From Alphaproteobacteria bacterium (GTDB lineage Bacteria > Pseudomonadota > Alphaproteobacteria > RF32 > CAG-239): a DNA stretch of 64,000 bases. This document shows, in pieces, positions 12,877-64,000 of this stretch. Each line of letters opens with the position of its first letter. The first letter of the stretch is position 1. Where the stretch lies: contig JBGULQ010000008.1 of NCBI GenBank assembly GCA_045116295.1, positions 13,147 to 77,146 of the forward strand, in the 5' to 3' direction. The notes below the pieces were generated by a model that was given only the letters and a program-made list of their open reading frames with translations, did no database searches and had not been told where the DNA came from. The position numbers and the translations under genes were made by a program.

Positions 12877-13177
12877 AATGAATAATTTTTAATGGCTGTC
12901 CTATCTCCATCGGAACAAATTTGGCTAAGTTGTCAGGGAGACACAAAAATGTGCTGACAACTGTCTACTTTTAGACCACGTTATGTAAGCCAAAAATACA
13001 ACCATTGGAGAAGCAGAACTTTCACAACAATTTCATTTCAACTAATAATAACCATATCTATACGTAAACAAGGTTAGTATATCACTTTTTGGGGGTTTTG
13101 TCAAATATTACCGTATAACTTTTTTTGCTTGCGAAAGTTTATATTTGCTCTATATTGTGGGCAATAATGAGGAAAAA

Positions 13178-47062: not shown

Positions 47063-47186
47063 CTTATCCTCACAATTAAATTTTTATATTGTTCTGTATA
47101 TACAATAAATATTTTGTTGATACCAATAATAATTGACATTAAATCACATAAATTTCCGGCAGTCGATACTGACTGCCGGATTGTGG

Positions 47187-48005
47187 TTATACAGATAAGA
47201 CTTCTGATTTGGCTTTTATAAAGAAATAGACAGCTTGGTTAATCGGAGTTACGTGAGAGCCATTATATAATCCGCTCGAAACACTGACCGAACTGGTACG
47301 TCCTTTGGTCGGGGTAGTACTCGAGCCATTAAGACGATATGCAACTGCGTGAGTTCCTGATGCTCCACCTTCTTGGCATAAATAGTTATTGGCATCAATA
47401 TTAACGCTATCTGATCCACCGGCTTTGGCACCTGCCAATAAGTGGTAGTGGCTTGGAACAGCAGGAAGACTTTCTGCCTGAGTTGTCTGAATATCGGTCG
47501 CAGAATTGCCTCCAAGCCCTCTCAAAAATTTGCCGCGATAGTCCGGTACATTAAAGGTTGTGACACCATTTCCGGCACCAAATTTGGTGCCAATAAGGTT
47601 ATATAGCTCAGGATAACTTTCTCTTTCTACTTCTTGTCCGTCACACAAAAGCCAATTGCCATGGTTGGCTGATTGTGCAGAGGCCTTGATATCGCCAACC
47701 GGCTGTAAAGCATTAATTATTGACACGACATTGCTTCCAACTCGACTGCTCATGCTATCAACTTGACTTTTAGTAACTACGTCACCGCTCAGTAAAGCAT
47801 TGCCGACATTTTTAATACGGTGTCCGCCCATATTGATATCGCCCTGCATGGCAACACGTCCGTCACGCAAGAATGTTTCGTTAAAGCCGGAAGCAAAATT
47901 ATCATCCTCTTCATCGGCATGATCTGAAACAATGTCGATATCATTGAGACGATCTTGTTCCCAGTTATGAACTCTGGTAAATTTTCCTTGTGAATCAAAA
48001 GGCAT
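47187..48005 (-). CDS. phage tail-collar (MdpB-like) fibre protein, orphan
   Basis: 272 aa with MGGHRIKNVGNALLSGDVVTKSQVD (a fibre shaft motif) and NWLLCDGQEVERESYPELYNLIGTKFG..TFNVPDYRGKFLRG (the Phage_Tail_Collar motif). Confidence 0.8.
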   Translation of the reverse strand: MPFDSQGKFTRVHNWEQDRLNDIDIVSDHADEEDDNFASGFNETFLRDGRVAMQGDINMGGHRIKNVGNALLSGDVVTKSQVDSMSSRVGSNVVSIINALQPVGDIKASAQSANHGNWLLCDGQEVERESYPELYNLIGTKFGAGNGVTTFNVPDYRGKFLRGLGGNSATDIQTTQAESLPAVPSHYHLLAGAKAGGSDSVNIDANNYLCQEGGASGTHAVAYRLNGSSTTPTKGRTSSVSVSSGLYNGSHVTPINQAVYFFIKAKSEVLSV

Positions 48006-48008
48006 TTG

Positions 48009-48083
48009 TTTTCTCCAATAAAAAAACCGCCCATTTTACGAGCGGCAGGTTAATAAAAAAGCGGAAACTTATCGTTTCCGCCA
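48009..48083 (-). repeat. leader repeat copy A: two tandem intrinsic-terminator hairpins followed by RBS and ATG of the tail-collar gene
   Basis: A 57-nt core (ccgcccatt...tttccgcca) is identical to 51461-51517. The minus strand reads GCGGAAAC-GATAA-GTTTCCGC-TTTTTT, then CCGCTC-GTAAAAT-GGGCGG-TTTTTT, then TTGGAGAAAA..ATG. Confidence 0.85.
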
Positions 48084-48114
48084 GGGTTAGTAGCTTTGTC
48101 TTTTTTAAATAACT

Positions 48115-48429
48115 TTATTTGTGTTTCCAGTTATACATAGTATATAAAGGTCTTTGACAAGTACATGAAATTGGTGAATCTATTATATTCCATATACGAG
48201 GATGCCAATTAAACATGAGAGATATTTGCATACAAAAATAAATAAACAGCATACCAATAAATATATATTGTACATCCCTATTATGGTACCAAAACCATAG
48301 TCCGCAAAGAGATAATGTCATAGTATAGAGTACGTGATTACAAAAACTATAGCTCCATCCCCTGTATAAGTAAGCTATTAAGACAGTAATCAGACATCCG
48401 ATGTAAAAGGCTAATGTCAGCTTCTTCAT
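48115..48429 (-). CDS. small 3-TM hypothetical protein
   Basis: 104 aa and Trp/Tyr-rich. Its ATG overlaps the stop of an upstream 37-codon ORF (ATGA). Confidence 0.55.
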   Translation of the reverse strand: MKKLTLAFYIGCLITVLIAYLYRGWSYSFCNHVLYTMTLSLCGLWFWYHNRDVQYIFIGMLFIYFCMQISLMFNWHPRIWNIIDSPISCTCQRPLYTMYNWKHK

Positions 48430-48539
48430 TTTTCAAACCTACTACTCGAAAACAAATAAGCTTCTTGATCAAAAAAACTATAATTAGCAAACAAATAACC
48501 TAAAGACAAACCGATTATAAAATATATTACCTTTCTCAT
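48426..48539 (-). CDS. 37-aa single-TM peptide (not in the ORF track)
   Basis: My own translation is MRKVIYFIIGLSLGYLFANYSFFDQEAYLFSSSRFEK*. It is translationally coupled (ATGA) to the 104-aa ORF. Confidence 0.4.
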   Translation of the reverse strand: MRKVIYFIIGLSLGYLFANYSFFDQEAYLFSSSRFEK

Positions 48540-48620
48540 GCACGACCTCTATTAAAATAAATAATATTTTGAAGTTAATATTTTATTTATTTTGACCAAA
48601 TTTATCTTTGTAACGGACTT

Positions 48621-48809
48621 TTATTTGATCCATTCATTATTAACGGTATTAGGCACATCTGTTGTTTGTAATTCATTTACAGATTTTTCGGGATTTTGGT
48701 TGGGGGTGATGTAATAATATTCACTTTCCCCGGGTTGAGGATTTTGCCTTTGTATCGGGTGTTTTCCGTTAAAAACACCTTGTAAATATTCATAGGTTGT
48801 GTCAGGCAT
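48621..48809 (-). CDS. 62-aa protein consisting almost only of the shared MPDTTYEY N-terminal module
   Basis: Its first 51 aa differ at 3 positions from the first 51 aa of the gene at 51440. The DNA at 48657-48830 has 7 mismatches against 51288-51460 by my count. Confidence 0.55.
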   Translation of the reverse strand: MPDTTYEYLQGVFNGKHPIQRQNPQPGESEYYYITPNQNPEKSVNELQTTDVPNTVNNEWIK

Positions 48810-48855
48810 TGATTTTCTCCAACAAAAAAAATCAATTCGGGGGCTCTCTTATGGA

Positions 48856-49194
48856 TTACATGTTTGCATCAATTCGCGACGTGTTATAATAATCGAATAT
48901 GTGGGGCCAGTATATAAATGTCCCCAACAACGATAGTAAAAGAAAAATCTCGAATGATATTATATAATATTTTTTGAACACGGGAGATTTATATTTGTAA
49001 TGGATAAATTTTGTTATACATGCAAATAACAAAGAAAAATCAAAAATTACAAAGAAGATATTAAACGGGAATTTGCCAAGGTAGATTTCTATTTGGAGAT
49101 CAAGCAGAAATAAGCTGTTAAGAAACAAGAAACATCTCATATATCTCATTATTTCTCTAAAAACCACACCCTTATCTTTTTTGAAAAATTTCAT
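48856..49194 (-). CDS. small 3-TM protein, paralogue of 50315..50671
   Basis: 112 aa. MKFFKKDKGVVFREIMRYMRC... aligns over its full length with MKFFKKDKGIVFRNFIRDARC... Confidence 0.6.
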   Translation of the reverse strand: MKFFKKDKGVVFREIMRYMRCFLFLNSLFLLDLQIEIYLGKFPFNIFFVIFDFSLLFACITKFIHYKYKSPVFKKYYIISFEIFLLLSLLGTFIYWPHIFDYYNTSRIDANM

Positions 49195-49240
49195 TTGTGC
49201 TTCCTATCAGTCGTCTACATTTTTTAACAATAATAATAAA

Positions 49241-50278
49241 TTACTTCTGACCTTTGGTATTAAAATATGTTCCGCATTTGGAATATTTACCAGCATAATT
49301 TAAAATATAATTGAAAGGACAATCCGATGAAACAAAAAAGTCAGCATCTTCATCAATAACTTTGCAAGCGTCTTTCAAGCTAACTCGTTTCTCATCTTCT
49401 TTGGTTAATTTTACCTTATCCTTATCAATGTTTTTTTCTTCCGCAACTTCACTGATAATCATATGTTCTCTCAATGCTTCAATAAAATCTAACGGAGCCT
49501 TAAAACGTTCTTCTTGCGTCCCCCAATCAGCCCTTTTGTAAAAATCGTTAATATCCGTATATTTTTCATCAGAAGCTCTTGCCAATAGAGCCATTTGGTC
49601 ATTTTCCGCTATTCCTATTTCTTCTTTGAATTTTTCTCTCACTTTATTCGGATAATTAACCATTTCATATCCTTGGGCTTTGCAAAACTCCGGATACGCA
49701 TAAGTATGACGATATATCTCACCCACAGCAAGCCCTAAATGAAAAGCAGATCTATTCGTATCAGGCATATATTTATCTTTCACTTCAAACATACCAAAGA
49801 TTCCCAGAAAAACCAAAATTGTAAAAATGATAGGGAATCGTGTTAGAAAGCTTCTTTGAGGTTCATCAACATTTTGTTTTGCAGGTCGTAAAGCAAGAAT
49901 TAAATGGGTAATCGCAGTAATACCTGAAATCAGATATATACTCCATCTGATTTCAGGGAAAAAGGATATATCAACATCAAAAGTTAATGCCATTGTATAA
50001 AGTAAGAGAACATTAGCCAGAATATACCATGTTCCTGAACTACCAAAAGACCTGGAACGTTTTTGTATTAATGCAGTCAAACAATATATCACAAGGAAAA
50101 ATACGATAATGTATGATATAAGCTCAAAAACACAAAACTTAGTTATTATCCCAAGCAACAAAACAGCTGTTATGTAAGGTATACGATAAATAATTCCTTT
50201 GTAAGAAAAAAATAGTTTTAAAATATTCCCGGAAAATAAAATTTGATTTGCTTTTTCAAAAAACTGTTTAAATTGCAT
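49241..50278 (-). CDS. hypothetical protein: N-terminal 4-5 TM domain plus a roughly 170-aa soluble C-terminal domain
   Basis: I prefer the ATG at 50278, after AAGGAGAAAG. The product is 345 aa. I recognise no family. Confidence 0.55.
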   Translation of the reverse strand: MQFKQFFEKANQILFSGNILKLFFSYKGIIYRIPYITAVLLLGIITKFCVFELISYIIVFFLVIYCLTALIQKRSRSFGSSGTWYILANVLLLYTMALTFDVDISFFPEIRWSIYLISGITAITHLILALRPAKQNVDEPQRSFLTRFPIIFTILVFLGIFGMFEVKDKYMPDTNRSAFHLGLAVGEIYRHTYAYPEFCKAQGYEMVNYPNKVREKFKEEIGIAENDQMALLARASDEKYTDINDFYKRADWGTQEERFKAPLDFIEALREHMIISEVAEEKNIDKDKVKLTKEDEKRVSLKDACKVIDEDADFFVSSDCPFNYILNYAGKYSKCGTYFNTKGQK

Positions 50279-50314
50279 GATCTTTCTCCTTGTGGCAATC
50301 CTATAATACATTAT

Positions 50315-50671
50315 TTATTCATCAAAAAGAGGAACGTATCTATTATCTAGTTTGGAATATGTAAGGTATGATAATGTATGTTTGCAGTAAAGTACAAAAC
50401 CTATTATTGAAAGCAACATGAGTACCTGACTAAATAAGACATAGTATCTTTTTAGTTTTCTGATTTTGAATTTGCGATATATAAATTTGGTCAAACAAGA
50501 ACCGATTAACATAAAATCAAAAAAATAAAAGAATGTATCCCACACATTATTTTGATGATGTAATTCTATTTGATAAATAATTAGGAATATATTATTTATC
50601 CATAAGACACATCTAGCATCTCTTATAAAATTTCTAAAAACTATACCTTTATCTTTTTTAAAAAATTTCAT
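50315..50671 (-). CDS. small 3-TM protein, paralogue of 48856..49194
   Basis: 118 aa with the same N-terminal MKFFKKDKG motif and the same topology. Confidence 0.6.
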   Translation of the reverse strand: MKFFKKDKGIVFRNFIRDARCVLWINNIFLIIYQIELHHQNNVWDTFFYFFDFMLIGSCLTKFIYRKFKIRKLKRYYVLFSQVLMLLSIIGFVLYCKHTLSYLTYSKLDNRYVPLFDE

Positions 50672-50707
50672 TGGTGTCCCTGTGTAAATGAGTGATTTAA
50701 CAATTTA

Positions 50708-51440
50708 TTATTTCTTTCTGTAGTTGCTTATAGAATTATGTAGAAGATTCTTGCCTTCTCCCGCTAATTTATTGATTATTGAGCGTATTATAGGACGTTC
50801 AACATTGTTGCCAAAAGCTTTCATTCCTCCATATGTACCTAATCCGCCACTAATTCCGCCTAGCGATGCATCAACAATAACATCTTTGGCATTGTTATTC
50901 TCATTATTACCATATCCGTCTAATGCCGACATTGCAATATTATTTTTATATATTTGTGATGATTTTACCCACCATGGTGCGGTTTTGGAATATTTGAATA
51001 GGGGAACACGGTTAGCTATTGAACCAACTCCCTCCGCAATGCGCGTATGCTATCGGATGTTCTTTGCGGGTTTGTTTTAGGATATTGCGTCTATTGTCAC
51101 GTGCTTCTTTATATCCACGACTAAAAGCTTCCCCGATGCTTTCTTGTTTATTATTGCCCAACATATTGCCTACCGCATACCCTGCCCCTTTTATTCCGCC
51201 TTCAATCTCATCGGCAAAACCGGCAGAAAGACCGTTTAGGGCGGCACTTGTTAATCCTTCGGATGTTTGTAGAATATTATTAGATATATCTGTTGTTTGT
51301 AATTCATTTACAGATTTTTCGGGATTTTGGTTGCGGGTGATGTAATAATATTCACTTTCCCCAGGTTGAGGATTTTGTCTTTGTATCGGGTATTCTCCGT
51401 TAAAAACACCTTGTAAATATTCATAAGTTGTGTCTGGCAT
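50708..51440 (-). pseudogene. glycine-zipper-rich protein with the MPDTTYEY N-terminal module, split by a frameshift near 51012-51049
   Basis: The first frame, 51440..51012, gives 142 aa. The second frame is open from 51049 down to 50708: HTRIAEGVGSIANRVPLFKY...ASLGGISGGLGTYGGMKAFGNN... I traced the two frames by hand and they overlap by about 38 nt. Confidence 0.6.
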
Positions 51441-51443
51441 TGA

Positions 51444-51517
51444 TTTTCTCCAACAAAAAACCGCCCATTTTACGAGCGGCAGGTTAATAAAAAAGCGGAA
51501 ACTTATCGTTTCCGCCA
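51444..51517 (-). repeat. leader repeat copy B: the same tandem terminator hairpins, followed by RBS and ATG of the MPDTTYEY gene
   Basis: See copy A. Outside the identical 57-nt core there is one substitution and one A-run length difference. Confidence 0.85.
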
Positions 51518-51537
51518 TAGTATATGTTCTTTGTAAT

Positions 51538-51572
51538 GTTCCAGGGTTCAAATCCCGTCCGCTTCTATACCA
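51538..51572 (+). other. degenerate tRNA 3'-half-like fragment (T-arm, acceptor and CCA), inverted relative to tRNA-Lys
   Basis: gttCCAGGGTTCAAATCCCgtccgcttctataCCA compares with the tRNA-Lys 3' half tCCAGGGTTCGAATCCCtgcgcgcctaCCA. The T-stem no longer pairs fully. Confidence 0.5.
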
Positions 51573-51573
51573 A

Positions 51574-51606
51574 TAAAAAAACCGCCCCAAAGGACGGTTA
51601 TTTTTA
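51574..51606 (-). terminator. intrinsic terminator directly after tRNA-Lys
   Basis: The minus strand reads AACCGTCC-TTTG-GGGCGGTT followed by TTTTTT. Confidence 0.7.
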
Positions 51607-51607
51607 T

Positions 51608-55889: not shown

Positions 55890-55903
55890 GTAGTTTTATT
55901 ATT

Positions 55904-56131
55904 TTATTTACAAAGCTCTAGCTCTTGGCGAAGTTTATCTATTCTGGCCAACCATTCCCAAAAACGTGTATGCCGACTATAATCAACATTTTCAAGCTCT
56001 TTAGCCACTTCAGGGCCTGCTGTAGGATAAGACGGACAAAAGTTATAATTTGTTTTGGCGCATGAGCTCAAGCAAAGCATCGCGCCCAGCATGGGGGCTA
56101 GAATATATGGCAGATTTTTTCTTTTCAACAT
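55904..56131 (-). CDS. o-spanin (Rz1-like outer-membrane lipoprotein)
   Basis: 75 aa. It has the lipobox LCLSS-C and is Pro-rich after the Cys. Its start is embedded in the 3' part of the i-spanin gene in another frame. Confidence 0.7.
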   Translation of the reverse strand: MLKRKNLPYILAPMLGAMLCLSSCAKTNYNFCPSYPTAGPEVAKELENVDYSRHTRFWEWLARIDKLRQELELCK

Positions 56132-56249
56132 ATTTGATGACCTCTACTTGTTTGGTTACAATTTCTGTGCGAGCATGAGAGCGTCCCAGTAAATATGAAA
56201 AAACAAATATTGTTATACAGATACCGAATATCAATGCTGTCTTTGCCAT
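56043..56249 (-). CDS. i-spanin (Rz-like)
   Basis: 68 aa with an N-terminal TM segment (ALIFGICITIFVFSYLL) and then a charged helical segment. It overlaps the o-spanin by 89 nt. Confidence 0.65.
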   Translation of the reverse strand: MAKTALIFGICITIFVFSYLLGRSHARTEIVTKQVEVIKYVEKKKSAIYSSPHAGRDALLELMRQNKL

Positions 56250-56250
56250 T

Positions 56251-56394
56251 TTACCAGAGTTCCTTTATGTTTATACCGACTGCAAACATTACGGCAATCA
56301 TTCCCCAAAGAAGCCAATATATTTTTCGGTGACGCAGTGCCATACGTATTATCCATTTCAAAAAACGATAACGGCAGTTTTTATGTTCTTCCAT
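56251..56394 (-). CDS. 47-aa single-TM lysis-cassette protein (not in the ORF track)
   Basis: My own translation is MEEHKNCRYRFLKWIIRMALRHRKIYWLLWGMIAVMFAVGINIKELW*. The ATG is preceded by an AGGAG RBS. Confidence 0.45.
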   Translation of the reverse strand: MEEHKNCRYRFLKWIIRMALRHRKIYWLLWGMIAVMFAVGINIKELW

Positions 56395-56406
56395 TTAGAT
56401 CTCCTA

Positions 56407-56847
56407 TTATTTGATGTCATTATAGAACAGATGATGGGTAGTTTCATAGCAAGGACTATGATGTTTTGCCCATATTGGAAATATGCTGCGGGTGTGATAA
56501 AAGGTTGCGTTATTGGTAAAATCTATAAGTCTTCCGCTAATGGCCTTATCTGCAATTTTTAGGCATAAACAAAATATTTTATCGTTTGAATTTAATTTGA
56601 GAATTTTTGAAAAATTTGGATCGGTCTTGTTCCAACAGCTGAATTGGTATTTTTTCAGGCATGTTTGCTTGAGATCGGGTATTTTAATGCCGTCATCAAG
56701 ACGATAACCGGTAAACCATTTGCGGGCATTGAAGCGGTTCACAATCACACAGGCAACCGCTTCCATACCTTCAATACCATCGCCCCGCGCCTCTCCCCAT
56801 AGTGTAGCGGCCATTATGTGCAAATCATCCCAATCATCAGGAGACAT
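56407..56847 (-). CDS. endolysin, SleB/CwlJ-type cell-wall hydrolase (Hydrolase_2)
   Basis: 146 aa with the AATLWGEARGDGIEGMEAVACVIVNR motif. Confidence 0.8.
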   Translation of the reverse strand: MSPDDWDDLHIMAATLWGEARGDGIEGMEAVACVIVNRFNARKWFTGYRLDDGIKIPDLKQTCLKKYQFSCWNKTDPNFSKILKLNSNDKIFCLCLKIADKAISGRLIDFTNNATFYHTRSIFPIWAKHHSPCYETTHHLFYNDIK

Positions 56848-57121
56848 TTTTGCCTCCTTTATGTTTGCAATTTAACAAAAGATCAAGTTTGGTTTCAAAA
56901 CTATCAAATTTGCTTTCAAGTTTTGCCAACATTATGTTTTGCTGATTTTGCATCATGATTGCCGAGGCTGTTTCTTTATCAGCTTTATCTATGCGTTGCA
57001 GCACACCTTCCATGCGTTCTTCCAGACGGCCTTTCCAAGACCCGAGTTTAACCAAATTCCACAACATGCCGGCTAAGGCAGCTATACCGGATATTCCGCC
57101 GATTGTGTTAATAAAATCCAT
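56837..57121 (-). CDS. holin-like protein (1 TM plus coiled coil)
   Basis: The ATG at 57121 follows GGAGGTGAT. The product is 94 aa with MDFINTIGGISGIAALAGMLWNLV at its start. Confidence 0.5.
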   Translation of the reverse strand: MDFINTIGGISGIAALAGMLWNLVKLGSWKGRLEERMEGVLQRIDKADKETASAIMMQNQQNIMLAKLESKFDSFETKLDLLLNCKHKGGKNVS

Positions 57122-57160
57122 TATCACCTCCATAAAAAAAGGGGCAGAAACTGCCCCCTG

Positions 57161-57850
57161 TTAAAAACCAATTGCTAACCAAAACCACTTACCCAAGTCA
57201 CCACTGCCAAGAGTAAAACCTGTTAGAGAATGAGTAATTACAGAGGCTATGGAAAAGTTTGATGGAGCAAGCGCATCAACTATGTGCGTCAGTGATATTG
57301 AATAGGATGTAGTTTCAAACGGAATCTCATATGTGCAAGTTGTTCCAGAGCTATCATCAAGTTCAATAATTCCCCATTGTATTGTCAAACCACCGGAATA
57401 CTTGACATGATTTGTACCTTGACTAACAATGTTGCCACCGTTAACAAAGGCTGTAGTGGCAACATTGGGAGATAAATCGTTAAGCGAGGGAGTTACGGCT
57501 TGTAATGATCCTTCAAATATCTTATCTCCGCTTATAGTTTGTTCGGTGTCAGTTGTGACATAAGTCTGTTCATATTCGGCAATAGTATTATTTATGTCAT
57601 TGATGCCTGCTTGTGTAGCATTATTAATAGATGTAATTGATTGAGTAGTTTCAATGTCAATAACTTGTTTTTGGTCATTTACATAGTCAGCAAGATCCGG
57701 TTTAGATACCGCAGCAACATAATTGTCAATATCGTCTCGTCCATATTTAACGTATTGGATATCTGCGGAAGTGTTTAAGGCCGCTTCATCCTGAAAGTAA
57801 ACATCAAAATCTTTTGAAGCGTAGTTTTCAAAAATATTAAGTTCGGTCAT
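57161..57850 (-). CDS. phage tail fibre protein
   Basis: The ATG at 57850 follows AAGGAG. The product is 229 aa with the ISGDKIFEGSLQAVTPSLNDLSPNVATTAFV fibre motif. Confidence 0.7.
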   Translation of the reverse strand: MTELNIFENYASKDFDVYFQDEAALNTSADIQYVKYGRDDIDNYVAAVSKPDLADYVNDQKQVIDIETTQSITSINNATQAGINDINNTIAEYEQTYVTTDTEQTISGDKIFEGSLQAVTPSLNDLSPNVATTAFVNGGNIVSQGTNHVKYSGGLTIQWGIIELDDSSGTTCTYEIPFETTSYSISLTHIVDALAPSNFSIASVITHSLTGFTLGSGDLGKWFWLAIGF

Positions 57851-57851
57851 T

Positions 57852-58199
57852 TTACACTCCTTCAGTAATTTGGAATATTGCATTTTGACTTATATCCTGC
57901 GGAAAGACGGTATGCACATTGCCACTGGCAAAAATAATTTTTATGTTGGCTTCATAAGAACCAACTGCAAGGCGTGAATGTTGCGGAGTAATTTTGATTA
58001 AGGCCTGACCATTGCCGGCATCAATGATGTCTCCTGCAATGTGCAGAACAGTGGTTTCGTCTTGGTCTTTGACATCAAGATATATGTTTGCACCGGATAT
58101 ATCCATTACTGATCCGTCTTTATGTTTGAAACGCATGGCAATATCAAAGCTATCGCCTTGTCTAACCAAAATTCCGTTTGGTGTCATTGTTCCTGTCAT
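57852..58199 (-). CDS. small Ig-like (BppU_N-like) virion protein
   Basis: The ATG at 58199 follows AGGAG. The product is 115 aa with GILVRQGDSFDIAMRF...YEANIKI beta-sandwich-like periodicity. Confidence 0.45.
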   Translation of the reverse strand: MTGTMTPNGILVRQGDSFDIAMRFKHKDGSVMDISGANIYLDVKDQDETTVLHIAGDIIDAGNGQALIKITPQHSRLAVGSYEANIKIIFASGNVHTVFPQDISQNAIFQITEGV

Positions 58200-58203
58200 G
58201 GCA

Positions 58204-59109
58204 TTACTCCTTGTTTGGCATTTGGCAGGCAAGGTCATATCTCAGTAGGAGGTATCCGTCTGCATCTTCATAGACTGCTTCAGGAATTATTTTAAGAACA
58301 TCTTGTGCCAGTAACCCAATTTGCGGAGTTGTACTTCCCTTGAAATTGAAACAATAAACCGTTAGCCCATTGTCAAGTTTTCCGACCGGTTTAATGTTTT
58401 CTTTTAATCTTACATCTGAAAACAACATAAGACCGACCTGAGCGGCAGTACCAAGTGCGTCTCTTCCTGCTTGAATACGTGCATCAGTGTTACTCTGTTT
58501 GGCGGCTGCAATTCTACTATCTGCGCCATGTTGAATATTGTAGATATTCATAGCATTATCATAGCCTGAATGTCCAAGCTGCAACTGTGAAATAATCTGG
58601 CTTAAATAATTGTTCTTTGCATTGTTACCAAAATTGGCAACCAATGCATTGTTGTTTAAACTTTGATTGAAAGCGTTTTGACCGCTCAATACTGATTGAT
58701 AAGCTGCTTGATTATAAGCATTGTTTTGACTGTTTTGCAGATTACTCATTGCACGGTTATAGGCATCGCTACCAACTGTAATACCCTGATTTTGAAGGCG
58801 GGTTTCGAGGTCATTGGTTTGTTGAGCAAATTGCGGTCTGAGACGATCTGTATATGCCTGATAAGTCGCATTTTCGGCACGTTTGCGAGCCTCATCAGAA
58901 CCATCGATTTCGTATGTATAGTTATTCATATTGTTCATATTTTGGCTCATGTTATAGGCGTTGTTGAGCAAATTTTGAACAGTATTATCGTAATTTGTTG
59001 TGTTATAATTTTGCAAATAATTTAAGATGTTACTCTCTGATTTATATGGGGAAGTACTGGCATTGCCGGCACCCAATAGTTTTCCAACTGCTTTAAATCC
59101 GCTAGACAT
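58204..59109 (-). CDS. Q/N-rich virion protein with a C-terminal S74 intramolecular-chaperone (autoproteolytic) domain
   Basis: 301 aa. The C-terminus is FSDVRLKENIKPVGKLDNGLTVYCFNFKG...IGLLAQDV..IPEAV. Confidence 0.7.
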   Translation of the reverse strand: MSSGFKAVGKLLGAGNASTSPYKSESNILNYLQNYNTTNYDNTVQNLLNNAYNMSQNMNNMNNYTYEIDGSDEARKRAENATYQAYTDRLRPQFAQQTNDLETRLQNQGITVGSDAYNRAMSNLQNSQNNAYNQAAYQSVLSGQNAFNQSLNNNALVANFGNNAKNNYLSQIISQLQLGHSGYDNAMNIYNIQHGADSRIAAAKQSNTDARIQAGRDALGTAAQVGLMLFSDVRLKENIKPVGKLDNGLTVYCFNFKGSTTPQIGLLAQDVLKIIPEAVYEDADGYLLLRYDLACQMPNKE

Positions 59110-59566
59110 TTTTTTCTCCTGTTGATTGATGATTGATAAATTTACATTCTTTGGCCAACATGCCTAAAACAAGTGCATCTTGGTCATCTGAAAAATATTG
59201 ACGCATTTTGCCCTCAAGAACAAAACCACATCTGGTTGCTAATGAAATAGAGGCATGATTATCCGGACGTATAAGGGCATTGAGCCGACGACATTTTAGA
59301 ACATTGAATGCAATGCCAAAAATTTGTTTTAAGCAAATCTTTGAGCACCAATGTTTATCCGTGGTATATATACTGATCCATGCCGTATCATTTAACTGAT
59401 AATCGCTAAAAACAACTCCTCCGACAATTTTATTTTGGTGTATAATTGCAAAAGAATAGCCTTTTAACATTTCTTCCGGTGACAAACCTAAACCGAATGA
59501 TACATAACGCGCAATATATTCGCTTTGATCATATACCAATTTAGACAATGCCGGCTCCCTGTTCAA
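59102..59566 (-). CDS. GNAT (RimJ/RimL-like) N-acetyltransferase embedded in the tail module
   Basis: 154 aa with ..CRRLNALIRPDNHASISLATRCGFVLEGKMRQYF... It overlaps both neighbouring genes. Confidence 0.7.
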   Translation of the reverse strand: MNREPALSKLVYDQSEYIARYVSFGLGLSPEEMLKGYSFAIIHQNKIVGGVVFSDYQLNDTAWISIYTTDKHWCSKICLKQIFGIAFNVLKCRRLNALIRPDNHASISLATRCGFVLEGKMRQYFSDDQDALVLGMLAKECKFINHQSTGEKNV

Positions 59567-61088
59567 AACGAAAACCGGTATTATACCACTCTATAAGATT
59601 GCCCTTAGTTTTGGTCTTAAAAACTACTGATGCCTTAAAACCGGTTGCACTATTAGCAATCCATTGACTATGTGTGATACCTTTTAAGGTTGACCATTTG
59701 GTACCAATTTGATGTTCAAGACTACTCCATTTACTCTGATTCCATTTAGTGCCGTTATGATTACCCATGTTTTCGGAATATTCACGTTCACTGTCATCAA
59801 AATCCATATTGGCATATATATTCAAACTAAAAACCGCAGAACTTTTGGTTCGCGGATTTAACATTTGTATTTTTTTAAGATTGGGTGTACCAAGTGAACA
59901 ATAAGCTTGATGGACATTGCCGCAAATAGCAATTCCGTTATCAGAATGTCCTTCATCAAATAAAAATACACCGCCGTCAGAACCAAAGTATAGTCTTCCT
60001 TCATATAAACACCAACAAAAAGAATATATATTGGTAAATCTGCACCAAGCTCCGGAGCTCATGTTGATTACATGTTGCTCAAATTGTCCGCCGACAGGAA
60101 CATTGAATAAGACATATCCACCTCGTGGATATATAATACTCTGCCAACCGGATATATTTTTTCCGGTTTTGACACGAGATAAAACCAAACCACGAATTTT
60201 ATCACTGTATGCGGCTTTACCGGTTGAACTTTCTCCGAGAGGTAAAACAGATGAAAGAGGGACATAACCTTCTTCACAGATGACAATTATGTCGCCCTGA
60301 TATTGCATTGTACAGTGTCTTCCGATCGGACGGCTGATAAAATATTTGCCACGTAATGACCAGTTATCAGCGTTGCCGGGATTGGTACCGGAATAAACCA
60401 AAACCTCTCCTTCGGTAGTAATAAAAACAGTAAGGTCGTCAATACCCTGCCCGCCGTCCTGCGTCCAACTTGCTATGGCGGCAATGCTTCCACCACGGGT
60501 GACCAATGTTGATAAATCGACACTGCTCAGTACTCCCTCAACCTCTCCGACGCCTGATGAATACCAATATGTCAAAGAATCTTTTTCAATATAAAAAACA
60601 CGTTGTTTTGAGACTGTTAGATTACATAACTTTTTGATATCAAGTCCCTCTCCGGCAATGTCAGTATTTTTCCATGTCCAAACGTCTTCTTCATTTTTAT
60701 AGTAGGTTTGGGGAAAATCCATACCATTGACCAGAAGTAACCGATTTCGAAACTGAACATAGTTCCAATCATTATAATTTAAGTTATCTACATCTACCGT
60801 ATAGTTGCCAGATGTGATATCAATAATTTTTCCATTGGCGGCAGCAAATAGTCGACTATTTTGTGAAGAAGAAAAAGTAATCAAACTTTCGATTTTGAGT
60901 CCCAGTCCTTCCAATGCATACATTTTGTATCCGCCACGCAAACATACATTAGTTTCAGACGGATAATAATTATCCATGGTAATAGCATCGGTTTCAGACA
61001 TATTATCAAAACTGTCGCGGCAATTAAGTCCGCCTATCGGTGCCGGCAAAATATAGTTCTGCGATCGGCTAATTGCTCTGTTTAACAT
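59541..61088 (-). CDS. tail tubular protein B-like (T7 gp12-like nozzle), short form
   Basis: 515 aa. The N-terminus ..PIGGLNCRDSFDNMSETDAITMDNYYP.. resembles the T7 gp12 start (..KGGISQQPDILRYPDQG..). It occupies the position right after a gp11-like gene. Confidence 0.45.
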   Translation of the reverse strand: MLNRAISRSQNYILPAPIGGLNCRDSFDNMSETDAITMDNYYPSETNVCLRGGYKMYALEGLGLKIESLITFSSSQNSRLFAAANGKIIDITSGNYTVDVDNLNYNDWNYVQFRNRLLLVNGMDFPQTYYKNEEDVWTWKNTDIAGEGLDIKKLCNLTVSKQRVFYIEKDSLTYWYSSGVGEVEGVLSSVDLSTLVTRGGSIAAIASWTQDGGQGIDDLTVFITTEGEVLVYSGTNPGNADNWSLRGKYFISRPIGRHCTMQYQGDIIVICEEGYVPLSSVLPLGESSTGKAAYSDKIRGLVLSRVKTGKNISGWQSIIYPRGGYVLFNVPVGGQFEQHVINMSSGAWCRFTNIYSFCWCLYEGRLYFGSDGGVFLFDEGHSDNGIAICGNVHQAYCSLGTPNLKKIQMLNPRTKSSAVFSLNIYANMDFDDSEREYSENMGNHNGTKWNQSKWSSLEHQIGTKWSTLKGITHSQWIANSATGFKASVVFKTKTKGNLIEWYNTGFRFEQGAGIV

Positions 61089-61776
61089 ATGCTATTCCTC
61101 CGTCGGATATACTGTCGGTCATGCCTCCTAAACTTATATCTTTATTAGCTAATGTTGAGCCAAAACGTTTACGACATTCGGTTTCATACTCACGATATTC
61201 TTCATCATAAGCAATGCCGTTTCTAGCCTGAAGACGCCATCTGATTGCAAGTTTGACAAGATATTCATCAAAAACAGGAATATCCGTATCTTTGGTAATT
61301 TCTGTTTTTTCGGTGAACAGGCCATTTTCGTACGCGACAACAGAAGAACGATATTGAAAAACAATTTTTATTCCCTCAGGAGGCGGAGTTAAAAAACGAA
61401 ACATCGAATTTTGAATTTTAAATTTAATTGTATTATCATCGTTATGAAAATATTTTTCATGCTGCCATTGTTCGGGACGAATTGAACCAATAATTTTTTC
61501 ATTGCCGTCTTTTATATAGACCGTATTGTTTAATAACTGAAAAAAATCAGGGCAAAATGCTTTAATTAGATAATCAGTTTTATTTTTAGAGGTTATCAAT
61601 TCTCCGTCCTTGGTAAGCTCTTGCCAATCACCATAGCGCAACAGACCATTGAGCGCATCTTTAGCAATGCTCTGAAAAACGCGATTGTTTTGACTGCTTG
61701 TAGTAAATAAGCTTTGCGGTTCTTGGACGCAAGCCAAATTAGCTGCGTCTTGGCATATTTCGAGTATGTTTTTCAT
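61069..61776 (-). CDS. tail tubular protein A-like (T7 gp11-like adaptor)
   Basis: 235 aa. It shows similarity in layout to gp11: N-terminal ..ICQDAANLACVQEPQSL.. and C-terminal ..YLVKLAIRWRLQARNG..EEYREYETECRKRF. Confidence 0.4.
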   Translation of the reverse strand: MKNILEICQDAANLACVQEPQSLFTTSSQNNRVFQSIAKDALNGLLRYGDWQELTKDGELITSKNKTDYLIKAFCPDFFQLLNNTVYIKDGNEKIIGSIRPEQWQHEKYFHNDDNTIKFKIQNSMFRFLTPPPEGIKIVFQYRSSVVAYENGLFTEKTEITKDTDIPVFDEYLVKLAIRWRLQARNGIAYDEEYREYETECRKRFGSTLANKDISLGGMTDSISDGGIAYVKQSN

Positions 61777-62323
61777 TTTTGCTCCTTATTTTTTTTGATT
61801 GTTGCAAATTATCAACTTTCGTTTCTAACTCTTTGATACGTTGTTGGTATTCTTGTTCTTTTTTTTGCCACTCAACAAGAGAGAGATTGCCTTTGGCTTG
61901 TTCAACAAACTTAATTGCAAGTTCGCGTTCTTTGCTGACACCAAGCTCTTCTGCATGTGAAGCATCTAGTTTGGTTAAATGCTCAACAGTATAAATTCCA
62001 CGAACCTTAAGACCGGCAATTTCAGCTGCATCTAAAAATGCAAATTGCTCTAACGGAGTGCCATCTTCAACACATTTTTTAGCTTGTTTATATCGAGCAT
62101 ATTCATTGGGAAAACGCCTTATTTTATCTGGTGTTGCCGGCTGATTATAAACTTCGGAGCTGTTATCTTTTATGCGTATTTCACAAAAACAAACCAACTT
62201 AAATTTTGGCAACCCGTCTTTGGTAATTTGAGAAGTTTTTATTGCCTGATCATAAAAACGTGCAATTACCCCCTCCTCAGAGTTGCCGTTATGTATCACT
62301 TTTTCAAAAGTTGAAAAATCCAT
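61739..62323 (-). CDS. phage hypothetical protein (coiled-coil C-terminus)
   Basis: 194 aa. It lies between the capsid terminator and the gp11-like gene. Confidence 0.5.
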   Translation of the reverse strand: MDFSTFEKVIHNGNSEEGVIARFYDQAIKTSQITKDGLPKFKLVCFCEIRIKDNSSEVYNQPATPDKIRRFPNEYARYKQAKKCVEDGTPLEQFAFLDAAEIAGLKVRGIYTVEHLTKLDASHAEELGVSKERELAIKFVEQAKGNLSLVEWQKKEQEYQQRIKELETKVDNLQQSKKIRSKNEKHTRNMPRRS

Positions 62324-62335
62324 TACTGTCTCCTT

Positions 62336-62368
62336 TATAAAAAAGCGGCGTCATTACTGACGCCGCTC
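62336..62368 (-). terminator. intrinsic terminator immediately after the major capsid gene
   Basis: The minus strand reads GCGGCGTCA-GTAA-TGACGCCGC-TTTTTTATAAAGGAGACAGTAATG. Confidence 0.8.
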
Positions 62369-62384
62369 ATTTTTGTTTTATTGA

Positions 62385-63368
62385 TTATCCTTCATTTGAT
62401 GACGTATCAGTGAAGACTACACCTTGCAAAGCGGCATTTGACATAGTCAAGTTACCGGCCCAACCGATGATTTTATAAATTGCATCTTGGTTGACTGACA
62501 TTCTCTCACCACCGATTACTTTCATGTTGCGGTCTTTATGAGTACGCAAATACAAATAATTGGTATTAAGAAAATACATTTTGCCATCGGGGCAGCAACC
62601 ACCTTGACCACCATCACATACAACATCTGCACCCTTAAAGCGCAAGGCTTCAAAACCGGCATCTGCAAGTCTTGTATCAACAAAACGCTGCTGAGCAGTT
62701 AATGACTGTTCAAACAATGAATACCACTCATCACCGGTGACAATCAAATCCGGCTTATCAATGCCGCGTGTCAATGACATATACATTGAATCCATTGCTG
62801 AACGCAGACTATCAGATGTAATCGTGCCGGTAAGTTCTTTGGCTTTGTTACGCCAAAACTCGTTACCTGCGGTTGCACGATTGATGTTGCCTACGGTGCC
62901 ACTGCTTGGAAAATCAGCTACCAACAAACTCAACCCACCAATTGATTTGCCGTTATAACCTGTACCATCACTGTATACAGCTTCGGCCATTTTATTGCTC
63001 ATAGTCTTAACTGCGTTTTCAATGCGCTTTTCAAACAAATCTATCATTTGATATTGACCAGAATTTTTGAGCAATTCTTCACCGGAAATGGCAACAGGAA
63101 CAGCACATAATTTTAATGAGTATTCGGCTGCGCTGAACAGTTGTTTTGGGGTATATGTAATTGTGTCATATCCTGAATACCAAGACAAGTCACCTTCTCC
63201 GTATTCAAGTTCTTCAATAATTTTTGAACCGCCGGCAAGCATGCGGTTGTGTCCTTTTTCTTGCAGACGTTTTAACAATGCATTGTTGTTAGAAACAGCA
63301 TCTGCAAGCTGGCCGCTACGGCTGGTAAGTGTGGTTGTAAAAATATCATTATAATCGTTATTAGCCAT
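62385..63368 (-). CDS. phage major capsid protein
   Basis: 327 aa. I assign it from its position after the scaffold-like gene, its size, the strong terminator behind it, and general likeness to T7 gp10-class capsid proteins. Confidence 0.6.
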   Translation of the reverse strand: MANNDYNDIFTTTLTSRSGQLADAVSNNNALLKRLQEKGHNRMLAGGSKIIEELEYGEGDLSWYSGYDTITYTPKQLFSAAEYSLKLCAVPVAISGEELLKNSGQYQMIDLFEKRIENAVKTMSNKMAEAVYSDGTGYNGKSIGGLSLLVADFPSSGTVGNINRATAGNEFWRNKAKELTGTITSDSLRSAMDSMYMSLTRGIDKPDLIVTGDEWYSLFEQSLTAQQRFVDTRLADAGFEALRFKGADVVCDGGQGGCCPDGKMYFLNTNYLYLRTHKDRNMKVIGGERMSVNQDAIYKIIGWAGNLTMSNAALQGVVFTDTSSNEG

Positions 63369-63390
63369 GTTTTTATCCTTCTATAATTGA

Positions 63391-64000
63391 TTATTGTTCA
63401 TCCAATTGTGCAAATTGGCGTTCAAGAATTTGTCTTGTGGTAAGACCTGTGTAATCATCATCATTGCTACGATGTCCGGTTACAGAAAAAGCAGCCTCTT
63501 TGGCTGCTTTTGCTTCTTCAGCTTTTGCCAATAATTCAGCCTCATGTTTGTTCTTGTCGTCAAACGCAGTACGCAATGCAGATACACTCTCAATCAGCAT
63601 ATTCATGCCGTTTAGCAATGCATCAGTCTTGGCACTGTTTTCGCTACAAATTTGGGCGGTATTGCTATCAGAACTTTGTCCCATATCAATACCATATACG
63701 CGAGCCAAAAATTGCAAAACTGCCGCCGGATTTTGCTCAATCAGATCCTCTGCCAAAATAAGATGTTCAATCCACTCTCTGGCGTTTTTGAACCCTCTTT
63801 TTGAGCCTTTTGAGCTGAAAGCATCATCAATAAAACGCCGAGCGTTGACCTCGGCGTTTAATTCTTCAAGCGATTTTGAAAATTCGCCTTCTCGTTCATA
63901 AAGATATTTGCGAACTTCAAATGGCAATCCTTTAAACAATTCGCGAATTTCTCCGATATAGGCTTCGGGAGCTTCTGCAAACTGTTCATCAGAAACAATA
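63391..64000 (-). CDS. scaffolding-like protein (partial; frame stays open to the window edge)
   Basis: It has an Ala/Glu-rich helical C-terminus (..HEAELLAKAEEAKAAKEAAF..). The M shown at 63939 in the track is a TTG codon, and the frame continues upstream (..IVSDEQFAEAPEAYIGEIRELFKGL..). Confidence 0.5.
   Translation of the reverse strand, partial: IVSDEQFAEAPEAYIGEIRELFKGLPFEVRKYLYEREGEFSKSLEELNAEVNARRFIDDAFSSKGSKRGFKNAREWIEHLILAEDLIEQNPAAVLQFLARVYGIDMGQSSDSNTAQICSENSAKTDALLNGMNMLIESVSALRTAFDDKNKHEAELLAKAEEAKAAKEAAFSVTGHRSNDDDYTGLTTRQILERQFAQLDEQ

Follow-up and report, generated by a model that had tools for sequence, protein, structure and literature searches.

To our knowledge, few gene transfer agents (GTAs) have been characterised, and all of these come from cultured bacteria. 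We analysed a 64,000-nucleotide stretch of DNA, hereafter the window, which comprises positions 13,147 to 77,146 of contig C8 (JBGULQ010000008.1, assembly GCA_045116295.1) from an alphaproteobacterium of the GTDB lineage RF32; CAG-239, and also read the next 39 kb of the contig, labelled L002, in which position p corresponds to window position 63854+p. The window holds only the distal half of a phage-derived element whose remainder lies beyond the window end on the same contig. On the comparisons presented below, this element is probably a host-kept, domesticated GTA-like particle producer, or viriform, that was derived from an Mx8/Pr-type podovirus, is switched by the SOS response and is controlled by antitermination.

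Among the systems that fall under the GTA/viriform concept (PMC9662315), the closest described one by architecture is BaGTA of the Bartogtaviriformidae (PMC3610622, PMC5496983, PMC9662315). Converted from published nucleotide lengths to amino acids (aa), its order is TerL (447 aa), portal (620 aa), a 279-aa gene, capsid (372 aa), a 487-aa gene, an S74 'endosialidase', a fibre and a lysozyme (PMC3610622, PMC5496983), and the gene sizes and order of the element resemble these, a likeness drawn from published description and not from sequence. Both are clusters of about 14 kb that are inherited vertically in small alphaproteobacterial genomes without the Rhodobacter-type agent RcGTA. BaGTA TerL is reported to group with that of the Sulfitobacter phages pCB2047-C and NYA-2014a (PMC9662315), which provides an indirect link, as the nozzle and S74 protein of pCB2047-type phages match those of the element; when the TerL of pCB2047-C was tried as a bridge to BaGTA, it was 28% identical to that of the element over the ATPase half only. 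The element differs from BaGTA in that no adjoining run-off replication origin was seen and in having its own CI/S24 switch, and whereas transfer has been proven for BaGTA, the element is known from its genes alone. A second candidate bridge, found as a weak hit in a class-wide search with the nozzle, was rejected. This locus (L157; G426:C5:9000-28900), from a 1.4-Mb alphaproteobacterial genome with a guanine-plus-cytosine (GC) content of 34.5%, is a different podovirus-like cluster whose gene order is not that of BaGTA; it encodes an adaptor-like protein of 217 aa, a nozzle homologue of 487 aa (25% identity) and a collar-type fibre, is preceded by genes of 469, 799 and 525 aa, and may be another domesticated or prophage module.

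RcGTA (Rhodogtaviriformidae; Rhodobacter, Caulobacter) shares with the element the nature of a domesticated head-tail cluster that has co-diverged with its hosts, and the release of particles by lysis and the probable dependence on ComEC/DprA for uptake are features of the RcGTA-type concept to which the gene content of the element can be likened. It differs in being siphovirus-like, with an HK97 capsid (PF05065) and a long tail, and in relying on host regulators instead of a CI-type repressor; a PF05065 profile search found no RcGTA-type HK97 capsid in the present genome and did match the Caulobacter control. FpGTA of Faecalibacterium (PMC12946183) is, like the element, a podovirus-like, GTA-like operon of a gut commensal with genus-wide conservation; it is likened here by description only, with no sign of kinship seen, and differs in its Firmicutes host and in its support from the sequencing of particle DNA. 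We found no description of the element in the literature on GTAs with RF32 or Mx8-type podoviruses.

Gene content of the element

The source genome comprises 1.37 Mb in 31 contigs, is 100% complete and has a GC content of 39.8%, and its nearest relatives come from rumen, deer, yak and human gut metagenomes. The element measures 14,452 bp from the spanin stop codon to the repressor stop codon, with a GC content of 38.1% versus 39.8% for the genome. Its structural and lysis genes within the window all lie on the minus strand, and the cluster runs past the window end. From the repressor to the spanins, followed by one dispersed fibre gene, its features are (window positions unless labelled L002):

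L002:5755(5833)-6501, plus strand, divergent: CI/S24 repressor (HTH_3 and Peptidase_S24)
L002:5183-5716, minus strand: early gene, 162/177 aa, no family match
L002:4765-5079, minus strand: early gene, 104 aa, no family match
L002:4390-4584, minus strand: open reading frame (ORF) of 64 aa with a transmembrane segment, hydrophobic, between the early genes and terS
L002:4304-4372, minus strand: double terminator immediately upstream of terS
L002:3786-4286, minus strand: TerS, P22 gp3-like (phrog_3064, PF16677)
L002:2531-3853, minus strand: TerL, PBSX family (PF04466, Terminase_3, E 3e-34; TIGR01547)
L002:2244-2501 (window-equivalent 66098-66355), minus strand: GroES-like co-chaperonin, 85 aa (PF00166, E 3e-11)
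L002:458-2251, minus strand: portal, 597 aa (phrog_12082, E 4e-112)
L002:204-455, minus strand: 83-aa gene between portal and scaffold
63391-64000 and on to L002:271, minus strand: scaffold-like protein, 244 aa in full, cut by the window end
62385-63368, minus strand: major capsid protein, 327 aa (phrog_9953, E 2e-102; NCBIfam NF033394 capsid_maj_Podo, E 2e-92)
62343-62368, minus strand: intrinsic terminator, 11-bp stem with 7 GC pairs and T-run, followed by the ribosome-binding site and ATG of the next gene
61739-62323, minus strand: 194-aa protein (phrog_20268), intact in all relatives
61069-61776, minus strand: head-to-tail adaptor (tubular tail A, gp11-type), 235 aa (phrog_6013 'tail protein', E 1.5e-24)
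59541-61088, minus strand: tail hub/nozzle (tubular tail B; P22 gp10 / T7 gp12 class), 515 aa (phrog_5107, E 9e-78)
59102-59566, minus strand: GNAT, IVPA-type 'head assembly protein' (PF13302, PF00583, phrog_4470)
58204-59109, minus strand: virion protein with C-terminal S74 domain, 301 aa (PF13884, E 1e-10)
57852-58238, minus strand: Ig-like, BppU_N-like protein, 128 aa from the first ATG (phrog_1084, E 1e-10)
57161-57883, minus strand: tail fibre, 240 aa (PF21882 Gp53-like_C, E 7e-8)
57139-57159, minus strand: intrinsic terminator, 9-bp stem with 6 GC pairs and T-run, directly upstream of the lysis cassette
56837-57133, minus strand: holin-like membrane protein, 98 aa, with a hydrophobic N-terminal segment, preceding the endolysin
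56407-56847, minus strand: endolysin, SleB/CwlJ type (Hydrolase_2), 146 aa (PF07486, E 3e-13)
56043-56249, minus strand: i-spanin, 68 aa, N-terminal transmembrane segment, kept in relatives
55904-56131, minus strand: o-spanin, 75 aa, nested with the i-spanin gene, lipobox LSSC, kept in relatives
47187-48005, minus strand: tail-collar fibre, 272 aa (PF07484, E 9e-20), 8 kb from the element

The genes predicted to build, fill and release a short-tailed particle are all kept, namely terS, terL, the GroES-like gene, portal, scaffold, capsid, adaptor, nozzle, GNAT, S74, fibres, holin, endolysin and spanins. An initial annotation of the window, made from its sequence and a list of its ORFs, had set out the distal genes in this order; all are present on the minus strand where it placed them and are identified by profile searches, the terminator that it saw behind the capsid gene lies at 62343-62368, and the lysis cassette is as full as it proposed, with a holin-like protein, a Hydrolase_2 endolysin and nested spanins. 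Its list overlooked the conserved 194-aa gene between capsid and adaptor, whose position suggests that it may encode a head-completion or virion protein.

Several assignments require comment. The 'amidase' label of phrog_5107 is wrong, and curated genomes call this family tubular tail B or phage stabilisation protein. The S74 protein matches phrog_6121 'virion structural protein' (E 9e-38) and phrog_4287 'DNA ejection protein', and, with its intramolecular-chaperone domain, is the last internal or ejection-type protein retained by the element. The Ig-like protein matches PF10651 with an E-value of 6e-4, under the curated cut-off, and its gene adjoins fibre genes in relatives. The 240-aa fibre gene is the fastest-evolving of the element (24-73% identity among relatives), and the holin-like protein is 72-100% identical in near relatives.

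Relationship to Mx8/Pr-type podoviruses

Megablast of the region against GenBank phages returned no match. In tblastn searches of the same phages, the capsid was 44-46% identical to those of Mx8, Mx9, ppBjS10J-1 (Bradyrhizobium) and BUCT555 (Stenotrophomonas), and 27% identical to that of the Brucella Tb/Pr group. The nozzle matched phages of the Mx8/Brucella/BUCT555 type together with Sulfitobacter pCB2047-A/C, NYA-2014a, phiGT1 and EBPR podovirus 2, with identities of 26-29% across the phages of the clade and of 28% to phiGT1 tubeB over 464 aa. Downstream, the S74 protein is 32-33% identical to phiGT1 gene 17 and its homologue in pCB2047-C, and a GNAT occupies the same position in pCB2047-C and in phiGT1, where this gene (gene 16) is annotated as the equivalent of P22 gp14 and T7 IVPA (PMC10386132). 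The nearest TerL proteins are those of Sf101 and other P22-like phages (32%). The Mx8/Pr clade has been described as separate from the T7-like, P22-like and LUZ24-like clades (Hardies et al. 2023, PMC10386132).

We compared the element with Mx8, Mx9, ppBjS10J-1, BUCT555, Brucella Tb/Pr and Ruegeria 45A6 and, for the tail half, with phiGT1 and pCB2047-A/C. The late order common to the element and these phages is terminase, portal, scaffold, capsid, small structural protein, tubeA, tubeB, GNAT, S74, fibres and lysis, and the homologous capsid, tubeB, IVPA-GNAT and S74 protein of the Mx8/Pr type are all present in this canonical order. The phages differ in their size of 38-53 kb and in carrying an integrase, a repressor region, replication genes and two large internal virion/injection proteins; pCB2047-C, for example, encodes proteins of 643 and 670 aa and a 417-aa integrase, none of which the element (14.5 kb) possesses. 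The integrase, replication functions, full internal virion proteins and length of about 35-50 kb that would define an autonomous genome of the Mx8/Pr type were not found in it. These matches indicate that the element descends from a temperate Mx8/Pr-type podovirus and not from the T7 supergroup.

Sequence searches of the PDB with nozzle, adaptor and capsid gave nothing useful, and matches came only from fold comparison, in which AlphaFold models generated from alignments of relatives were compared with the PDB. The nozzle model had a predicted template modelling score (pTM) of 0.60 and a beta-propeller with a predicted local distance difference test score (pLDDT) of about 90, and its top four PDB matches were P22 gp10, VP1, Pan3 and Pa223 (E 3e-9 to 4e-8) and not T7 gp12. 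The adaptor model was weak (pLDDT 58); its top ten PDB matches were nevertheless all portal, neck or tail-complex structures of podoviruses, the matches include VP1, A4, KHP30, N4, Pa223, SU10 and DEV, and T7 gp11 followed at rank 18 with a probability of 0.87. As modelled, a podovirus tail core is present, with an adaptor and a beta-propeller nozzle encoded side by side after the capsid.

The initial annotation had read the locus as a T7-supergroup (Autographivirus-like) module in an integrated state, a reading that we now regard as scarcely credible. The adaptor and nozzle do have folds of a class common to T7 gp11 and gp12, so that the names gp11-like and gp12-like hold at the level of the fold, as podovirus adaptor and nozzle, but not as a relationship to the T7 supergroup, and a terminator does stand behind the capsid gene as in T7. 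The nearest phages by capsid and nozzle are, however, the temperate Mx8, Brucella Pr/Tb, BUCT555, ppBjS10J-1 and Sulfitobacter phages, the terminase is of the P22/PBSX type, and the best nozzle folds are P22 gp10 and VP1 rather than T7 gp12. The interval between repressor and terS contains only the ORFs of 162/177, 104 and 64 aa and leaves no room for an RNA or DNA polymerase; PF00940 had no match in the genome, although the control genomes were equally silent. The gp12-like protein had also been called short at 515 aa, yet this is no unusual length for the clade: phiGT1 tubeB has about 532 aa (1,599 nt), and the chain of P22 gp10 has 471 residues. Likewise, the GNAT and S74 proteins, which had been taken to stand in place of the internal core proteins, are the standard IVPA homologue (P22 gp14 / T7 gp13 position) and a standard virion protein of the lineage.

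Genes for mobility and two large genes, probably for ejection proteins, are missing

Past the repressor, the element is flanked by genes for three membrane or periplasmic proteins and then by tolR, tolQ and ybgC; on the other side lie an MsbA-like ABC exporter gene, a U32 peptidase gene and tRNA-Lys. The junctions are tight, with 14 nt at one and a 4-nt convergent overlap at the other. No att-like repeats were found at the junctions, where the longest shared word is 9 nt, which is the level expected by chance, and no integrase, excisionase, replication or primase gene was found within the 14,452 bp. Genome-wide, there are only two tyrosine recombinases (307 and 342 aa) and two serine recombinases, all on other contigs, and no paralogue of any element gene, so the element is single-copy. 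As neither an integrase nor att sites are present, to describe it as being in an integrated state is misleading. The initial annotation had pointed to the right of the window as the place to look for portal, terminase, polymerases, integrase and att sites; portal and terminase are there, while room for a DNA or RNA polymerase, an integrase and att sites are not.

Through an alignment-based scan of IMG/VR we identified 61 related contigs, whereas a scan with the nozzle as a single protein found nothing. The complete free relatives examined were five contigs of about 34-35 kb (L060, L061, L062, L090 and L096), which CheckV rates as 99-100% complete; two have direct terminal repeats and three are proviruses, and four of the five carry a tyrosine integrase. 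These gut and rumen phages are the nearest free relatives of the element (nozzle 44-56%, capsid 59-70% identical) and have its gene order in common, GroES-like gene, GNAT and collar fibre included. They differ from the element by two extra genes immediately past that of the S74-type protein, with products of 307-322 aa and 640-744 aa. Neither these genes nor the phiGT1 proteins of that slot have a homologue anywhere in the present genome, in agreement with the view of the initial annotation that large internal-core genes are lacking. In phiGT1 and pCB2047-C, the post-S74 slot is filled by proteins of about 520-670 aa, one with a muramidase domain, whose annotation is internal virion or injection protein; BLAST detected no similarity between the IMG/VR extra-gene proteins and the internal virion proteins of phiGT1. 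Gene content compared in this way shows that integrase, replication genes, att sites and the two large post-S74 genes have been lost.

The GroES-like gene between TerL and portal is kept in the syntenic chromosomal copies that are sequenced at this point as well as in the 34-35 kb free phages, and by analogy its product would be a lineage-specific capsid-folding helper reminiscent of T4 gp31. Several species (L022-L024) contain 0.6-1 kb of additional sequence that separates TerL from the GroES-like gene, which points to a variable insert, for example a homing endonuclease, within a cluster that is rigid elsewhere.

A further GenBank record, MT835830.1 (L004; 16,998 bp, 'UNVERIFIED: Bacteriophage sp.', human faeces, Mexico), is syntenic with the element and comes from a host whose GC content is 51%. 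Its capsid and TerL are 75% and 77% identical, respectively, to those of the element, it has no terminal repeats, integrase or replication genes, and it carries an additional 579-aa ORF between TerL and the GroES-like gene. This record is probably a chromosomal cluster of the same kind and not a phage genome.

These data bear on whether the element might be a very small temperate phage that is autonomous, or a satellite dependent on a helper, with host or helper functions reinserting it at a single site. It does possess a repressor, a packaging module and all virion genes, and the 17-kb scaffold of MT835830.1 consists of such a cluster alone, with no host flanks. Against this, integrase, excisionase, replication and primase genes and att repeats are absent, the genome contains no other prophage-type capsid, MT835830.1 lacks terminal repeats, and both the co-divergence with RpoB and the permuted order fixed in a sister genus (see below) do not fit repeated infection. 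We therefore consider this explanation very unlikely. A satellite resembling the phage-inducible chromosomal islands was rejected, as the element has no integrase or replication gene and brings its own tail and lysis genes.

Retention by the host

The order tolQ, tolR, genes for proteins of 318, 242 and 227 aa, element, ABC exporter and U32 is kept in four relatives (L017, L018, L020 and L027), while partial flanks are seen in L022-L024, on the ABC-exporter side only, and in L025, on the tolA side only. The ABC exporter gene adjoins the element in all relatives seen; here its longest ORF begins 14 nt past the o-spanin stop (gap 55890-55903), and it may share a transcript with the lysis genes or use an internal start. 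One intact capsid gene is present in 21 of the 29 species-level genomes of the genus. Of 201 genomes sampled from the family, 95 carry the capsid gene, always as one copy per genome, and 7 of the 23 sampled genera are represented; some genera have it nearly throughout (23/23, 14/15, 11/12, 18/22), and in others it was not found (0/22, 0/13, 0/12). None of the capsid genes of these 95 genomes contains a stop codon or frameshift.

Ratios of nonsynonymous to synonymous substitution rates (dN/dS) were computed against the nearest species, where dS is unsaturated (0.3-1.4). Capsid and portal had a ratio of 0.03; TerL, nozzle and scaffold each gave 0.04 and the adaptor 0.05, no gene exceeded 0.25, and the flanking host genes gave 0.05-0.14. 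TerL, TerS and portal (0.03-0.05) are among the most constrained genes, and gene lengths in the element are kept down to 50% identity. When capsid, adaptor, nozzle, portal and TerL were concatenated, the resulting tree showed the same clades as the RpoB tree used for the hosts, and the distance matrices are strongly correlated (Mantel r 0.93, p 1e-4, n=16 genomes). A sister genus has a permuted cluster that still adjoins the same ABC exporter, with the order repressor, early gene, GroES-like, portal, collar, Ig-like, fibre, lysis, TerL, scaffold, capsid, adaptor, nozzle, GNAT, S74, which is fixed in at least nine species. Thus the same host genes flank the element in several species, it co-diverges with its host, and it is under strong purifying selection.

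It could be argued that the element is a grounded, selfish defective prophage, a recent or slowly decaying remnant that lyses its host upon SOS induction, confers no benefit and is heading for loss. Such a remnant would account for the phage-type CI/S24 switch with a full lysis cassette, for the scattered absence of the element from 8 of the 29 genomes of the genus, and for the filing of its relatives as viral in public records (MT835830.1; IMG/VR contigs such as L066). An unselected remnant, though, is expected to show frameshifts and piecemeal deletions, of which the capsid genes of the 95 genomes show none; all genes are intact, up to divergences that saturate dS, with dN/dS of 0.03-0.25, there is a single copy per genome in seven genera, and site and phylogeny are congruent with the host. 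On balance, we think it unlikely. The chromosomal location of phage-derived particle genes that cannot replicate or move by themselves and their vertical inheritance, co-divergence and purifying selection are what the GTA concept describes, and of the alternatives raised by the initial annotation the comparative data favour a domesticated particle-forming element.

A class-wide search also recovered nozzle homologues (E 1e-237 to 1e-247), nearly as similar as those of family members, outside this family, in small genomes: two of family f40 (G245, G548) and one of family f108 (G589); the element or very close phages may be present in more than one family of gut Alphaproteobacteria.

Regulation and the displaced fibre gene

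The repressor and early genes are divergent, and a sigma-70 match of 11/12 (TTGACA, 16 nt, TATCAT) lies upstream of the early gene. Two tandem intrinsic terminators directly precede terS. All nine relatives examined have a terminator no more than about 10-15 nt from the start of this gene, with hairpin sequences that vary and a position and T-run that are constant. The arrangement of hairpin, T-run and ATGGA that precedes terS also precedes the holin gene, and the capsid gene has a strong terminator behind it. We infer lambdoid control as the simplest reading of this repressor and these terminators. The 64-aa hydrophobic ORF has a promoter-like site of its own and is followed directly by the two tandem terminators, and the spacing from the 104-aa gene to terS varies among species (about 0.5-1.6 kb).

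A collar-fibre homologue (40-51% identical) is located between the S74 and Ig-like genes in L004, L020, L022-24, L027, L029, L066, L154 and L155, whereas this slot is empty in the present genome and its two closest relatives. Here an intact homologue lies instead at 47187-48005, at the end of a toxin-immunity island at tRNA-Lys (47063-51607). It has a double-terminator leader (about 48017-48082) of the same design as that of terS, and the toxin cassettes of the island (47-51.6 kb) likewise have leaders of double terminator, ribosome-binding site and ATG like those of terS and the holin gene. From this shared design, the island may belong to the regulon of the element.

This arrangement is also what might be expected of a domesticated particle with a role other than transfer, one that kills or competes with other strains by delivering or releasing the neighbouring polymorphic toxins, or that serves lysis-based secretion, and that packages DNA for stability only. 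The collar-fibre and toxin/immunity cassettes could be co-induced through the leader that they share with terS and the holin gene, and fibres evolve fastest, as expected for targeting. We nevertheless find such a role improbable: the constraint on TerL, TerS and portal (dN/dS 0.03-0.05) points to DNA packaging as the selected activity, and relatives keep the element with no toxin island adjoining it.

Proposed mode of action

As a GTA-like particle producer, the element would work as follows. The LexA-like CI/S24 repressor would shut the divergent early promoter until RecA-type cleavage, upon which the two small early proteins (162 and 104 aa) would be produced. One of these may render RNA polymerase resistant to termination, such that the terminators at terS, behind the capsid gene and ahead of the holin, collar-fibre and toxin genes would be read through, and the late operon and the dispersed genes would be transcribed together. 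The P22-type headful terminase would then pack chromosomal DNA, the expected substrate because the element can neither excise nor replicate, starting from a pac site in or near terS or unspecifically; if the ancestral capacity of about 34 kb is kept, one headful from terS would take in the whole late operon and, beyond it, ABC exporter, U32, tRNA-Lys and toxin island. The lysis cassette would free the particles. With no large ejection proteins, they would bring DNA only as far as the periplasm of the recipient, for subsequent uptake by ComEC/DprA. In the model developed for RcGTA and BaGTA, DNA delivered to the periplasm is imported by ComEC, ComM, ComF and DprA (PMC6899734), and the loss of the two large post-S74 genes fits this model of periplasmic delivery. 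ComEC and DprA are intact in this genome.

In its fullest form, the proposal is that the element represents a third alphaproteobacterial GTA lineage, derived from Mx8-type phages and long kept in several gut and rumen genera with tiny genomes, that has shed its ejection proteins, delivers DNA to the periplasm for ComEC/DprA, and uses an SOS repressor and read-through that reaches the displaced fibre and toxin cassettes. We hold this combination more tentatively than the identification as a GTA-like particle producer, as possible rather than probable.

A number of observations weigh against the proposal. The capsid gene is absent from 8 of the 29 genomes of the genus, at at least five places on the RpoB tree. 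At least some of these absences are an assembly effect, since in one genome with no capsid gene (G017) a short contig retains the repressor and early genes. Real losses do occur: in G007 the site is taken up by other genes, with unrelated small genes following on the contig of the tol side and the ABC exporter placed on a different contig. The scattered absences and the site in G007 therefore indicate that the element is dispensable; a clean empty site could not be reconstructed in any genus member lacking the capsid gene, and the contig of G022 ends 0.7 kb past the 227-aa gene. The phage-style CI/S24 switch is unlike the host-integrated regulation of RcGTA, and the two early proteins (162 and 104 aa), the candidates for the antiterminator, match no family. 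The two missing genes are taken to encode ejection proteins from their position alone. ComEC is found in 198 of 201 family genomes, with or without the element, and given this lack of correlation its presence is permissive evidence only. If the ancestral capacity of about 34 kb was kept, one headful could hold the entire 14.5-kb element, which, in departure from a classical GTA, could then package its own genes. Finally, particles, DNA packaging and transfer are predictions from the genes of a metagenome-assembled genome of an uncultured bacterium.

Implications

If the identification as a GTA-like particle producer is correct, the element would constitute a podovirus-derived GTA lineage in Alphaproteobacteria of gut and rumen that are abundant but uncultured and have genomes of 1.2-2 Mb. 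It would provide a natural experiment in the domestication of a temperate phage, in which integrase, replication and large ejection genes are lost and packaging, capsid, tail hub, fibre, lysis, repressor and terminator-based late control are kept. In public databases and by virus-detection pipelines, such clusters are classed as phages or proviruses, as exemplified by MT835830.1 and several IMG/VR contigs, and this misfiling would inflate prophage counts and hide what may be a major route of gene exchange in gut communities.

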